A stretch of DNA of 64,000 nt from a virus, in IMG/VR virus record IMGVR_UViG_3300043256_000274, positions 1-64,000 of that record; one strand, 5' to 3'. Under the pieces are notes generated by a model. The model saw only the letters and a program-made list of their open reading frames with translations, ran no database searches and was not told the origin of the DNA. Shown here in pieces: positions 9,691 through 50,808 of this stretch (position 1 is the stretch's first letter; each line of letters starts with the position of its first letter). Position numbers and translations under genes: made by a program.

Positions 9691-9766
9691 TGGCTGGGGC
9701 GGTAGGCTTCGAACCCACAACCGTCCGGCTAACAACCGGGTGCTCTACCAGTTGAGCTACGCCCCA
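9691..9766 (-). tRNA. tRNA-Asn(GTT)
   Basis: TGGGGCG/CGCCCCA acceptor stem, TAGCTCAACTGGTAGAGC D arm, TTGTTAG anticodon loop, GTTCGAAG T loop, encoded CCA. Confidence 0.92.
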
Positions 9767-10890: not shown

Positions 10891-11123
10891 TCTTCCTTGT
10901 CGAGCGTGTAAGCGTCCAGCAAGTCCCAGAAGACGTCGAGGAGTTCACTCGAGTCCATCCGCGGCTTGAGGATGCATCGATCTTCTTCGCCGATCAACTT
11001 CCAGGTTGTCTCGCCCAGAGCGTCCTTCTCGGCTCTTTCGATCCAGATGGACTGGTTGGAGTCGCTGGTCACGACGCGCCAGTTGAAGTCTTCGTAGCGG
11101 ATTCGTCTGTTGGAGTGTGTCAT
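10887..11123 (-). CDS. Hypothetical protein
   Basis: Coupled ORF. Confidence 0.6.
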   Translation of the reverse strand: MTHSNRRIRYEDFNWRVVTSDSNQSIWIERAEKDALGETTWKLIGEEDRCILKPRMDSSELLDVFWDLLDAYTLDKEE

Positions 11124-11138
11124 AGTGTTGATGGAAAA

Positions 11139-11546
11139 CTACAAGCAACCTTCATGCTTTATTTCATCGCCGACTTTCATCTCGAAGCCGTGACCATAGT
11201 AGCCGTTGTGCCAGTTGTAGATGTGCAAGTACAACGTTTTCTTCGTCAAAAATAAGAAGCCACGCGGGCGCAGCTTGAAGATGGCGAATCCACCGCCATC
11301 ATCCGACTCTTCGCCTTCTTGAAAGAACGATGGGTCGAATTCATAGTTCTCCCAATCGGAGAAATCGCCTTCATCTTCGGTGCTGTTCCAACTGAGTTCC
11401 GTCATTGGCTCGTTCACGACGAGCCATCCGAAGTTCTCACATCAGCCGTGGTCAGCGTCGAAACCGACGAAGACGTTGTTCTCGTCAATCCAGTTGTAAT
11501 GGTTGCCCCAGTCGTTAGGGTTTTGCTTGCCTTCAAAGAACTTCAT
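11139..11546 (-). CDS. Hypothetical protein with in-frame TGA at 11442-11444 (candidate selenoprotein or nonsense mutant)
   Basis: ATG overlaps upstream stop; frame reads MKFFEG...DADHG*CENFGW...HNGYYGHGF with no frameshift; ORF track shows only the 3' part. Confidence 0.6.
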
Positions 11547-11737
11547 AGCGCGGCCCTCACTGCGGCGTCCTTGGCTTCGAGCAGCTTGCGCAGCGCGACC
11601 GTGGTCTCAGGACTGTCGGGCTCACGGTTGGCGACTTCATGCGCGAGATTGTAGAATGACTGACCGACTTGTTGGAGATGCCCCGGCAGATGCCAGACAT
11701 CGAAGAAAGGGAGTACATGCTCGATTGAAGGGTGCAT
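11543..11737 (-). CDS. Conserved small phage protein
   Basis: FF...HLP.HLQ...F..LA...PE...ALRKLLEAKDAAVRA. Confidence 0.8.
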   Translation of the reverse strand: MHPSIEHVLPFFDVWHLPGHLQQVGQSFYNLAHEVANREPDSPETTVALRKLLEAKDAAVRAAL

Positions 11738-11754
11738 GGTGCTTCTGTTGAAGG

Positions 11755-11910
11755 GCTCCAGTGAGGGTTGGCGTGGAGAGACGCCTACGTTTTACGCATC
11801 GGCCAGCTACGGTGCTCTGCCGGGACGAACCCGACTTCACCAGCCTTCCGTATCGGCTGCTCGTTTAGGCAACTGTGTCCCAGTACCAGCCGATGCCCCC
11901 TCGCCGGAGC
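11755..11910 (-). ncRNA. Candidate structured RNA
   Basis: Nested helices GCTCC/GGAGC, GAGGG/CCCTC, GCATCGGC/GCCGATGC, GGGAC/GTCCC, CAGCC/GGCTG, GGCGT/ACGCC. Confidence 0.5.
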
Positions 11911-11920
11911 GTTTTCGTTG

Positions 11921-12268: not shown

Positions 12269-12342
12269 TGGTCAGGGGGAGAGGATTCGAACCCCCGCCA
12301 GATGCGTCCGAAGCACCGATGCTACCGCTACACCACCCCCTG
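12269..12342 (-). tRNA. tRNA-Pro(CGG)
   Basis: CAGGGGG/CCCCCTG acceptor stem, GGTGC-TTCGGAC-GCATC anticodon arm, GGTTCGAATCC, ACCA end. Confidence 0.9.
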
Positions 12343-12495: not shown

Positions 12496-12537
12496 ATCCT
12501 ACCACCCTACAGGAGTGGTTGCAACCACTCCTGTAGG
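12496..12537 (-). promoter_or_regulatory. sigma70 promoter with its -35 centred in a perfect 32-bp palindrome
   Basis: TTGCAA-N17-TAGGAT with TGn; palindrome CCTACAGGAGTGGTTGCAACCACTCCTGTAGG at 12506-12537. Confidence 0.65.
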
Positions 12538-13082
12538 TCAGCCATCGGGACGACGTAGGCGTGGTGGCAGGCGGGGCCGCTGCCCAGCATCATCGCGACA
12601 AGCTCGCCGGCCGTGTTGAAGATCCCCCCACCCGAGTCGCCGGGGGAGATACCTGACGAGACTCGGTCCATATCGGACACGAGTCCCGTCGTGAGCCACA
12701 GGCCGTAGCCCCCGCCCCAACCGGCGCCGTAGACCTGCTCCCCGAGGGTGAGGGGGGAGTAGTCGATCGCGTGGAGGGGGATCGCCTTCTCAGGGGCCGA
12801 GAAGGCGATGAGCATGGCATCCTCGGTTGGATGGCTCGAGAGGGCCTTGCCTCCGGTGAGCGTTCGGCCGTCCCGCGTCTTCACGGTCCATTCGCCTCCC
12901 CAGGCCTGGCCCATGTGCCCCGCTGTCAGGAACAGGATCTCGTCGTCAGTCACCGCTACCGGGAGGGCCGAGCCGTTGCCGATCGGACAGATGAGTTGCC
13001 AGACGTTGGCCGCGGCCTGGATCCGCGGTGACGGTGCTGAAGTGCAGGACGCCAGCACCGCGGTGATGGCCAGGATCTTCAC
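12507..13082 (-). CDS. Trypsin-like serine protease, predicted lipoprotein
   Basis: Lipobox LASC; LTAGH, D, GDSGG catalytic motifs. Confidence 0.85.
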   Translation of the reverse strand: MKILAITAVLASCTSAPSPRIQAAANVWQLICPIGNGSALPVAVTDDEILFLTAGHMGQAWGGEWTVKTRDGRTLTGGKALSSHPTEDAMLIAFSAPEKAIPLHAIDYSPLTLGEQVYGAGWGGGYGLWLTTGLVSDMDRVSSGISPGDSGGGIFNTAGELVAMMLGSGPACHHAYVVPMADLQEWLQPLL

Positions 13083-13577: not shown

Positions 13578-14333
13578 CTACTTAGGATGTTGCAAGTAGC
13601 AGTCTAGCACAAAGCGCTCGACACGTTCGACGTCGGGGGGCCCAAGGGAGGTCACGGATTCGAGCGTCTTGAGACGCTGCTCGAGATCGGCAGCTTCACG
13701 CAAGACTTCGTCCTGCGTGACCTTCCCGGTGCGGATGTCGATGATATGCTGTCGCACCGGCTCTGCCATAGGCAGCGTCAGCTTGCCGGTCGTGGCGAGC
13801 TCGATTCCCTGGTGGCCGAGGCGAATGATGTGGCCGGCGTACTTGGTGTCGAACCCGTAGCGTTCGATCAACTCGGGCCGGTTCGGCATCTTGACCTTAT
13901 CGGTGAGGCGCTTACGCTGCTGGATCATGTAGCCGAGGTACGGGCCGAAGAGGTTGTGGCTCACGAAGGCCTCCCGCATGGCGACGAGCTCTTGGCCGCG
14001 GTCGTCCATACTCACGACGAACTCAGGTGGCAGGAAGAGCAGGGTCAGGACCGTTGGGTTCCCCTTGAGCGCGAGCCTGCACCACTTGGCGAGGCTGTAG
14101 ATCGTCAAGTCGAGGTCTCCGGGTCCAGAACGCGCCCCTTCGGGTTGCGTTCTGTACGTCCACTGCTCGAATTTCGGGCGCAGGCCGAAGAAGTGTTCGA
14201 ACGGCTCCACACAGATCCCCATTTCGTCGCGGTCGTCCTGGTCGGCGACCGACAGGCCGTGGACGGTGGAGCCGACCACGCCGCGGAGGATCGTGTTGGG
14301 TTCAGCGAGTTCTTGGGCGTTGGGGTGGATCAT
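13578..14333 (-). CDS. RlaP/YcgL-like DNA polymerase beta-superfamily nucleotidyltransferase
   Basis: VGSTVHGL...DDRDEMGI, LALKGNP, FDTKYAGHIIRL. Confidence 0.85.
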   Translation of the reverse strand: MIHPNAQELAEPNTILRGVVGSTVHGLSVADQDDRDEMGICVEPFEHFFGLRPKFEQWTYRTQPEGARSGPGDLDLTIYSLAKWCRLALKGNPTVLTLLFLPPEFVVSMDDRGQELVAMREAFVSHNLFGPYLGYMIQQRKRLTDKVKMPNRPELIERYGFDTKYAGHIIRLGHQGIELATTGKLTLPMAEPVRQHIIDIRTGKVTQDEVLREAADLEQRLKTLESVTSLGPPDVERVERFVLDCYLQHPK

Positions 14334-47369: not shown

Positions 47370-48181
47370 GATTGATCGAACCCAAACGTTGGGCGTTCTT
47401 CTCCTGGTGAGATGATGACGGTGAGCGGGGAGATGTTGGGGGACTGGTCGCCGGCGTACTCGCATCCGGTTCCTTCGCTCATCTCGAAAGCATCGACGCA
47501 GCCGAGAGGATCCAGCCAGCGACCGATACAACTGTACCCTAGTCGCATGTCGACTTGGCGTGGGTTCATGCCAAGGGCCATCCAGTCTCTTCGAGACTGG
47601 ATGTACCCACACGATGGACACACGAACCGCCAGTCGTTGACATCAGGCCCGAACAAAGTTCGGCCCTGCTGTTGCCATTCGGCCATTGTGACCTCGGGCC
47701 ACTCGTCGCTCCACGGCTTCGGCCCGTAGATGTACGTCTCCCAGTTGACCCAGCCGTTCTCGGTGTGGAAGCCCCACTTCCTGGTCTTTCGGCCGTGGAT
47801 CACAAGCGTCGTGCAGGTCGGCGAAACGTAGATGATCCTGTGGGCTCCCTCGGCTCGGCAGAAGTTGAACCAGCGACGGTCTTTCAGCCAGATACCTTCT
47901 TCACCTTCGATTGGCCTGATCTCCTGATACCAGCCGCGCAGTACGAACGAGATGAAGTTCCACGGGTGGTCGTGCATGTGTCGATCAGGGTCCGGACACT
48001 TGATGCGGTGGACGAACACGGAGAACCACGGGCAGCGGAAGACGATGAGTCGCCGTAGGTAGACCGGTACAGCAGGGCCAGTCGTCTGGCCCTGCTGGCT
48101 CGTAATGTCCCACCAGCGCCAGAGGACCCACCGTTGCTTTTCGAGTGGGTCCTGTTTCCTGTGGAAGAAGGGCTTGATCAT
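47366..48181 (-). CDS. Cupin-like domain fused to a VVA0879-like Cys-rich domain
   Basis: HDHPW.F.S..L.G.Y.E...HRI...WGF; then FG.D...W.F.CP.CG, SCIGR, GC.Y. Confidence 0.65.
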   Translation of the reverse strand: MIKPFFHRKQDPLEKQRWVLWRWWDITSQQGQTTGPAVPVYLRRLIVFRCPWFSVFVHRIKCPDPDRHMHDHPWNFISFVLRGWYQEIRPIEGEEGIWLKDRRWFNFCRAEGAHRIIYVSPTCTTLVIHGRKTRKWGFHTENGWVNWETYIYGPKPWSDEWPEVTMAEWQQQGRTLFGPDVNDWRFVCPSCGYIQSRRDWMALGMNPRQVDMRLGYSCIGRWLDPLGCVDAFEMSEGTGCEYAGDQSPNISPLTVIISPGEERPTFGFDQS

Positions 48182-50808
48182 TCGCAGTCTCCGGTGATGG
48201 CGCAGGAGATCACCGCGCCTCGCTTGCCGTCCTTGTTGTACGTGGTACAGCCTTTACATCCGAGCTCCCAAGCTCGGATGTAAATACCCTTGAAGTCGTC
48301 CCAGGACATCGAGCCATCGACGTTGCAGGTCTTGGATACGGCGCTGTCCACGTAGGACTGCGCCGTAGCCAGCACCGCCAGATGTTCGTTTGCTGTGACC
48401 TCACCCGCTGTCTTGCCGCGGACGCCGAGGAACCGGGACCCGTAGTCCTCGAAGCGATATGTCCGCGCGACCTGATCGCTGTCGATGATCTCGCGGTCGA
48501 CCTCATAGGCGAACACCGGCTCGATGCCGCTGCTGATGTTGTCAGCGCACAGGCTGATCGTCCCTGTGGGCGCGATGGAGAGTAGGTGAGAGTTGCGGGT
48601 ACCGTACCGGCCGATGTCCGCACGGACGTCGGCCGGTAGAGTCTGGATGAACTCCCCCGCCTGGTAGCGCGCGTCGAACAGCGGGAACGGACCCTTCTCT
48701 CGGGCCAGCGCAACGCTGGCCCGATACGACTCGTCCCGCAAGACAGTCAGGATGGTCGCCAAGGTACTGACGAACATCTCGCTGCCGTACTCGAAGCCCA
48801 TGGCTTCCAGTGCGTTCGCTACGCCCGTCACACCCAGACCCATTCGGCGCTTCGACTTGGCCTCGCGCTCCTGCTCAGGCAGTGGATAGGTGGCGACGTC
48901 GATGACATTGTCCATGGCCCGTACGACCAGGGGGATGTCGGCCTGGAAGAGGTCGTAGTCGAACTCCCAATGGAACTCCTCGCCGGTCATGCCCCCGCCG
49001 TCGTAGCCGAGATGTCGACCCTGTTTCAGATACATCGTCAGGTTGAACGACCCCAACAGACACGCACCGTAGGGCGAGAGCGGCTGCTCTCCACATGGGT
49101 TCGTGGCCGCGATGGTCTCGCAGTACCACAGATTGTTCGCGGCGTTGATGCGGTCAATGAAGAGGACACCGGGCTCACCCCAATCCCACGTTGACCGCAT
49201 GATGGTCTCCCACAACGCACGGGCGTTGATCTGCCGGACGTTCTGCCCCTCGAAGCGTAGCCAGAAGAGTGCATCGTCACGGACAGCTTCCATGAACTCA
49301 TCCGTCACCGCGACCGAGATGTTGAAGGCCGTCAGCGCGTTCGTGTTCTGTTTCGCATGGACGAACTCCTCAATGTCGGGGTGGTCGACGCGCAGAACCC
49401 CCATCTGGGCACCGCGACGATGGCTCGCGGCCGAGATGCAGACGCAGCCGGCGTTGAAGATGCCCATGAAGGGAAGCGGCCCCGCGGAGTGGGTCTGTAG
49501 CTTCTTGATCAGCGCACCCCTGGGCCTCAGCGTCGAGAAGTCGTAGCCGATCCCGCCTCCCATCTGGAGGGTGGCGAGGGCCTCGTCGAGGCGTTGGGTG
49601 ATGGAGCCATCGCCGACTCGCAGCGAGTCGGCGATAGTCCCCGACACAAAACACTGACCAGTGTGAATTCCACCCTCCAAAACAAACGAGTCGGTGGACT
49701 TGACGCGCGGACAATACGTCATGCCTTTGCGTATTGATCCGATCTCAGCTACGCGCCAACCAGCTTTTCGAGGCACGAACCGATCACGGTGATGCTCCAT
49801 CAGGAAGTCAGCGTTCGTCAGTGATGCGCGGTCGAAACGGAGGTTTCCGGACTCCTTGTTGCGCTCTCCAAAATTCGTAGTGGCCTTGAGTTTTGACCAA
49901 CCTAGCGGGTGGAAGCCAGCGACAGGAGCCCAGCGTCGGCACCACTGGACCTCGTCCGGGGCCATGCAGATTGTAACTTCTGGCTGCGTAGATACGCAGC
50001 CGTCTGTAGCTATCCATCCGCGCATGAACCCACGCAAGTATGCAGGAGAGACGTCGAGCGGTAGCACTTTGAGATTACTGTCAGACTCAATCACCACGAA
50101 CGGATCACCACCACAGGAGTTTGGGTGGGTCACTGAAAGTGCTGGAAGGAATCGTTCGAGAGTTGCCTTTGCACCACAGAGGCGAATCTGGAATCGACCT
50201 GCGCGTCGGAATGAGCCATCGCCATAGATGATGCCGTGGGCAAGACCATCCAAATAGTTGATGGGGCATTCTCCGCGGTCTTGTTCTGTTTTTAGTCCAG
50301 GCGCGTGAAGGTATGCAATCGACAAACCTCGACGCAAGTTACCAGTTACGCACTCCGACCCATCTGCAAGGATCCAGCGATGGTCTGGTGTTGCCCAGAC
50401 GGTTTGGGAGATGCGTCCTGACGTGAGTCTAACCTCTCGTAGATCGCGGATGCCGAACTCATTGATCTTTGCTCGTTGCCACTCGCCGTTGCCGTCGAGC
50501 AACGTAACCTCTCCATATTCATAGGCTGTTGAGAGATCAATCACACCATGCTCTCTCGTAATGAACCGGGTGCCTGCCTCTAGACAGTTGTACGGCGTGA
50601 TGTTGCGCGTGCTACCGATGGCCAACTGTATTCGGCCTCCAGCCAAGAAGCGCTGTTCGAGCAGGATCTCCCGGTAGGGTTTGTAGTGCTCGCCGGGAGC
50701 GAGCACTACAGCCTGCCGGTTGCATGCCTCTTCGAAGCTCTCCCCCGGGCCGCGGTACTTTGCGGCGTGCTGCAGGTCACACTCGGGAACTTGCGGTCCG
50801 TAGGTCAT
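48178..50808 (-). CDS. nrdJ: Class II (B12-dependent) ribonucleotide reductase with intein
   Basis: YN/CFV, GGGIGYDFS.LRP, RRGAQM, HPDI, ATNPCGEQPL, GACLLGS, IAPTGT; no small subunit nearby. Confidence 0.9.
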   Translation of the reverse strand: MTYGPQVPECDLQHAAKYRGPGESFEEACNRQAVVLAPGEHYKPYREILLEQRFLAGGRIQLAIGSTRNITPYNCLEAGTRFITREHGVIDLSTAYEYGEVTLLDGNGEWQRAKINEFGIRDLREVRLTSGRISQTVWATPDHRWILADGSECVTGNLRRGLSIAYLHAPGLKTEQDRGECPINYLDGLAHGIIYGDGSFRRAGRFQIRLCGAKATLERFLPALSVTHPNSCGGDPFVVIESDSNLKVLPLDVSPAYLRGFMRGWIATDGCVSTQPEVTICMAPDEVQWCRRWAPVAGFHPLGWSKLKATTNFGERNKESGNLRFDRASLTNADFLMEHHRDRFVPRKAGWRVAEIGSIRKGMTYCPRVKSTDSFVLEGGIHTGQCFVSGTIADSLRVGDGSITQRLDEALATLQMGGGIGYDFSTLRPRGALIKKLQTHSAGPLPFMGIFNAGCVCISAASHRRGAQMGVLRVDHPDIEEFVHAKQNTNALTAFNISVAVTDEFMEAVRDDALFWLRFEGQNVRQINARALWETIMRSTWDWGEPGVLFIDRINAANNLWYCETIAATNPCGEQPLSPYGACLLGSFNLTMYLKQGRHLGYDGGGMTGEEFHWEFDYDLFQADIPLVVRAMDNVIDVATYPLPEQEREAKSKRRMGLGVTGVANALEAMGFEYGSEMFVSTLATILTVLRDESYRASVALAREKGPFPLFDARYQAGEFIQTLPADVRADIGRYGTRNSHLLSIAPTGTISLCADNISSGIEPVFAYEVDREIIDSDQVARTYRFEDYGSRFLGVRGKTAGEVTANEHLAVLATAQSYVDSAVSKTCNVDGSMSWDDFKGIYIRAWELGCKGCTTYNKDGKRGAVISCAITGDCE
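49654..50586 (-). mobile_element. Intein (311 aa) with LAGLIDADG endonuclease and C-terminal Gln
   Basis: Starts CLEAGT; block B ATPDHRW; HGIIYGDG and RGWIATDG; ends TYC..V....SFVL.GGIHTGQ before C+1. Confidence 0.9.

Follow-up and report, generated by a model that had tools for sequence, protein, structure and literature searches.

To determine whether an in-frame TGA in a small phage gene is a true stop or a selenocysteine (Sec) codon, we analysed a window of 64,000 nucleotides (positions 1 to 64,000 of IMG/VR record IMGVR_UViG_3300043256_000274). The window is part of a 76,410-bp virus record from a marine sediment metagenome that CheckV rates as complete. A sequence-only reading had proposed that a translationally coupled gene on the minus strand carries a TGA next to a Cys codon, followed by a bacterial SECIS-like hairpin, and that its product is a Sec-Cys-Glu protein relying on the host SelABCD, a TGC-to-TGA mutation or a sequencing error being the main alternative. 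As shown below, every feature it described is present in the sequence and its interpretation is supported, although the function of the hairpin as a SECIS and the presence of SelABCD in the host, which is unknown, remain unproven.

The interrupted gene and its family

The positions of the gene and of the surrounding features are given in Table 1. The start codon overlaps the stop codon of the upstream ORF as ATGA, and the frame, which reads ...VGFDADHG-TGA-CENFGW..., is interrupted only by the TGA. To address whether this codon could be an error, we compared independent assemblies. A Logan contig of about 20x k-mer depth is identical over 10900-11900 with no variant, and the two halves of the gene, of 34 and 88 residues, are each called on three contigs from JGI and Logan. 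An assembly or read error is thus very unlikely, although only one DNA run contains the stretch and the data probably come from a single sample.

Table 1. Positions of the features in the window (L081 rows refer to a separate metagenome contig)
Feature	Position	Strand	Description
Whole gene	11139..11546	minus	135 codons plus the TAG stop (11141-11139); ATG at 11546-11544; member of phrog_10011 / DUF7448
In-frame TGA	11442..11444	minus	Codon 35, on the first Cys of the CCE motif; proposed Sec codon
Upper stem-loop	11406..11426	minus	UGGCUCGU / CGUGA / ACGAGCCA; perfect 8-bp stem, loop CGUGA, starting 15 nt after the TGA; candidate SECIS
Extended stem-loop	11394..11438	minus	45 nt; lower GAG/CUC and UUCG/CGGA helices plus the upper stem; -16.2 kcal/mol
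Shine-Dalgarno-like motif	11554..11558	minus	GAGGG, 7 nt before the ATG
Upstream ORF	11543..11737	minus	64 codons; TGA stop (11545-11543) overlaps the ATG of the gene; no Pfam match
Downstream start codons	11417 and 11405		GTG and ATG, 8 and 12 codons after the TGA
Terminator-like hairpin	11257-11276	minus	Hairpin followed by a U-run (CUUAUUUUUG), inside the gene
Intergenic structure	11740-11920	minus	Multi-branched fold upstream of the operon
tRNA-Asn(GTT) and tRNA-Pro(CGG)	9691-9766 and 12269-12342	minus	Flank the block of small genes that holds the interrupted gene
Trypsin-like peptidase, RlaP-family nucleotidyltransferase and 876-residue ribonucleotide reductase large subunit	12507-13082, 13578-14333 and 48178-50808	minus	Encoded in the phage
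L081 radical-SAM protein	4147-5121 of L081	minus	CxxxCxxC motif; three genes upstream of the TGA-bearing family member; identified by eye
L081 N-acetylmuramoyl-L-alanine amidase-like gene	1652-2101 of L081		Identified by eye

The phage also encodes a portal protein, a large terminase, tail proteins, a DNA polymerase, a primase and a helicase. The intergenic region upstream of the operon, which a separate sequence-only note had also flagged, folds with an MFE of -79.3 kcal/mol (z -3.47, 0 of 200 shuffles as stable) and has no Rfam match; Rfam detected nothing but tRNAs near the gene. The terminator-like hairpin inside the gene lies in a stretch (RGFLFLTKKT) that differs from close relatives, but the count of such sites in the region is not above the shuffle expectation.

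The protein read through the TGA matches phrog_10011 (E 3.1e-19) over residues 12-126, which span the TGA. By contrast, its match to Pfam DUF7448 (PF24240) is weak, 18.4 bits for a cut-off of 27 bits, but many close homologs carry PF24240. This viral family is of unknown function; a profile of the family found 1261 clusters at 50% identity among 1.84 billion representatives, and its Atlas clusters are almost entirely viral. In an alignment of 45 homologs, the TGA falls on the first Cys of a CCE motif, which is Cys in at least 90% of them, and all 45 IMG/VR loci have CCE. The 'CCE...NGYY' motif given by the sequence-only reading is correct. N18, D21, G28, E37, F70, N111, NGYY, H119 and G120 are invariant and are all kept in the protein of the window, which also has the DENNV, FDxxF and HNGYYGHGF motifs of the family. 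AlphaFold2 gave a confident, mostly beta model (pLDDT 88) in which CCE and HNGYYGHG both lie in loops between strands. Neither Foldseek nor VIA-align found a convincing match in the PDB, the best being Z 5.3 over 39 residues, and the ESM Atlas gave only viral hypothetical proteins.

Recurrence of the stop at one column

To determine whether other members of the family share the TGA, we searched metagenome contigs with a degenerate DNA pattern for the conserved N-terminal motif followed by TGA-TGY-GAR. Two hits in JGI metagenome contigs, called here L081 (GQC-TGA-CEDAGWFIS...NGYYSHGF, 34% GC) and L082 (SQV-TGA-CENAYW...NGYYDHGF), are genuine and divergent family members with TGA at the same column. 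The same pattern found no family member in IMG/VR, the own record left out, and gave a single hit in 596 Gb of prokaryote genomes, in a Cyanothece MAG; a looser pattern gave a single hit in IMG/VR. Neither of these two hits is a family member, which matches the expected chance rate and shows that the metagenome hits are not noise. It should be noted that no TGA form was found in 30 cultured-phage records or in about 80 IMG/VR loci. All 30 cultured-phage records have the family member as one annotated gene, those of KP13-26 and KP2025, flagged as double, only overlapping the next gene. Moreover, the three TGA forms verified at the DNA level are scattered singletons in the tree, each beside Cys forms.

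As an unbiased control, we searched 5.8 billion predicted proteins with a profile of the first 43 residues and asked where the short N-terminal fragments end. Of 46 fragments, 14, including that of the window, end exactly at column 34, the residue before the first Cys, whereas no other end position holds more than 3 and none ends after the first Cys, so that none has a stop at the second Cys. Together with L082, the column-34 set forms 13 lineages below 80% identity, and the binomial tail for 13 of 45 at one prespecified column is about 5e-11; ten of these lineages are inferred from where proteins end and not from DNA. Two fragments, P0232 and P0064 (the latter on a 27.5-kb contig), end just before the conserved Trp of CCExxxW and could be TGG-to-TGA mutants or come from phages that read TGA as Trp. 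Three diverged pairs share the stop, P0072/P0222 at 90%, P0252/P0254 at 84% and L081/P0242 at 97%, indicating that the stop is inherited and not only recent. In addition, P0033, the closest relative of the C-terminal part of the window's protein (55%), begins just after the motif, at the position of the first downstream start codon of the window, as expected if it is the second half of another TGA form.

No genome-wide change of the genetic code is involved. TGA ends 57 of 89 ORFs in the phage, where the only tRNAs are Asn and Pro and no suppressor tRNA is present. In L081, two neighbouring genes end in TGA within ATGA overlaps, and the interrupted gene fits a tightly packed operon only if it starts at the upstream ATG. 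A genome-wide search for other TGA-interrupted frames in the phage was too noisy at 60% GC to be used.

The downstream hairpin and the decoding machinery

We next compared the hairpin with those of other family members, using bSECIS-like criteria (a single hairpin, an apical loop 16-37 nt from the UGA, a loop of 3-14 nt and a G in the first two loop positions). The upper stem-loop is the centroid structure of the local fold, and the lower helices appear in the best single-hairpin fold. The window ranks 2nd of 36 family sequences, whereas L082 ranks 11th (-4.5 kcal/mol) and L081 14th (-3.8 kcal/mol). The three hairpins start 15, 12 and 11 nt after the UGA, include the conserved Trp codon in the 5' arm and have GU in the loop, part of which follows from the conserved protein sequence. 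However, a qualifying hairpin at least as stable as that of the window occurs at 8% of random positions of this 60% GC genome, 11 of 33 Cys forms equal or beat L081, and a Cys-form relative, L079 (IMGVR_UViG_3300025018_000111), has a perfect 15-bp hairpin (-18.9 kcal/mol) at the same place after its TGC-TGY-GAR. Similarly, the energy of the 63 nt after the codon did not separate TGA forms from Cys forms. The hairpin, which is the weakest part of the case, is compatible with a SECIS but does not prove one; bacterial SECIS elements are known to be heterogeneous (PMC12013277).

No selA, selB or selD was found in the 76.4-kb phage, and no tRNA-Sec was detected by ARAGORN over the whole genome or by Rfam over the 64-kb window. 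Decoding would therefore have to use the system of the host, which could not be assigned, as the nearest terminases are only 40-48% identical and come from Shewanella, Rhizobium and Erythrobacter phages and the nearest tail proteins are about 32% identical and come from Pseudomonas phages.

Selenocysteine and the alternative explanations

Taken together, these results suggest that the gene probably encodes a 135-residue DUF7448 / phrog_10011 protein in which the UGA is read as selenocysteine, giving Sec-Cys-Glu where relatives have Cys-Cys-Glu. SelA, SelB, SelD and tRNA-Sec would be those of the infected cell, with SelB recruited by the stem-loop. Comparative support is strong, but there is no direct biochemical evidence, and the identity of the inserted residue, the role of the hairpin and the Sec competence of the host are inferred. 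A recent nonsense mutation (TGT or TGC to TGA) inactivating the gene in this phage, whatever the other lineages do, is unlikely but possible: a single transversion is enough, the gene is a small accessory gene, the TGA forms stand beside Cys forms in the tree, the hairpin is not statistically special, and defective family copies with frameshifts or deletions do exist (P0062, P0063, P0068, P0071 and P0065). However, random inactivation, contig-end truncation and sequencing error all fail to explain a stop confined to one Cys codon across so many lineages, never found at the adjacent Cys and shared by diverged pairs. The downstream frame also keeps every invariant residue, and none of 45 tblastn-confirmed IMG/VR loci is broken.

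A conserved leaky UGA, read at low level without SelB by a near-cognate tRNA (Trp or Cys) so as to throttle expression of the full-length protein, would also explain the conserved downstream frame, would need no Sec machinery in the host and would make the weak hairpins of L081 and L082 irrelevant. We consider it about as unlikely, since it gives no reason why the UGA always replaces the first Cys, Trp at a near-invariant Cys would probably be non-functional, and Sec/Cys pairs are the established explanation for this pattern (PMC12013277). Even less likely is a split gene producing a 34-residue peptide and a C-terminal protein separately initiated at the downstream GTG or ATG, although gene callers predict the two pieces separately. 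In this case the segment following the TGA would go untranslated, yet it matches the family consensus in all three DNA-level cases (CENFGW, CEDAGWFIS, CENAYW); in addition, L081 has no start codon for 30 codons after its TGA and no good Shine-Dalgarno motif precedes the internal starts of the window, which argues that the region is translated through the UGA. An artefact or an altered code is the least likely, given the assemblies and the use of TGA as the commonest stop in the phage.

These observations correspond to the working criteria for new bacterial selenoproteins, namely a Sec/Cys pair with conserved flanks, UGA-bearing homologs elsewhere and, as a candidate only, a SECIS-like structure downstream (PMC12013277), except for a demonstrated Sec-using organism. 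As in bacterial selenoprotein genes read by SelB, of which E. coli fdhF is the prototype, the UGA lies on a Cys column and a stem-loop with G and U in a small apical loop begins 11-15 nt after it; here, however, the gene sits in phage genomes that carry none of the Sec machinery, its family is viral, and the hairpin shows no statistical or covariation support. UGA is redefined as Sec in a few viruses (PMC8310308). The selenoproteins of animal viruses rely on the Sec machinery of the host, as proposed here, but they use eukaryotic 3'-UTR SECIS elements and are captured host genes of known function, whereas this is a bacteriophage gene of a virus-specific family with a candidate bacterial-type SECIS inside the ORF. 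In the literature we could search, no paper reports a bacteriophage selenoprotein or mentions DUF7448, a marine survey found few or no viral sequences in selenoprotein families (PMC9402790), and two recent bacterial selenoprotein resources, one of them PMC12013277, do not mention phages.

It is probable, although not established, that DUF7448 / phrog_10011 is a bacteriophage-borne Sec/Cys family in which roughly 1% of the lineages, including this marine-sediment phage, encode selenocysteine at the first position of a vicinal Cys-Cys motif. If true, gene callers would systematically split such genes, a virus of bacteria would depend on the expanded genetic code of its host, and a Sec codon would tie these phages to Sec-competent hosts and could serve as a marker of host range. 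The Sec position would further point to the reactive residue of a widespread viral protein of unknown function and no recognised fold, the conserved pair being, by inference only, a redox-active or metal-binding centre.
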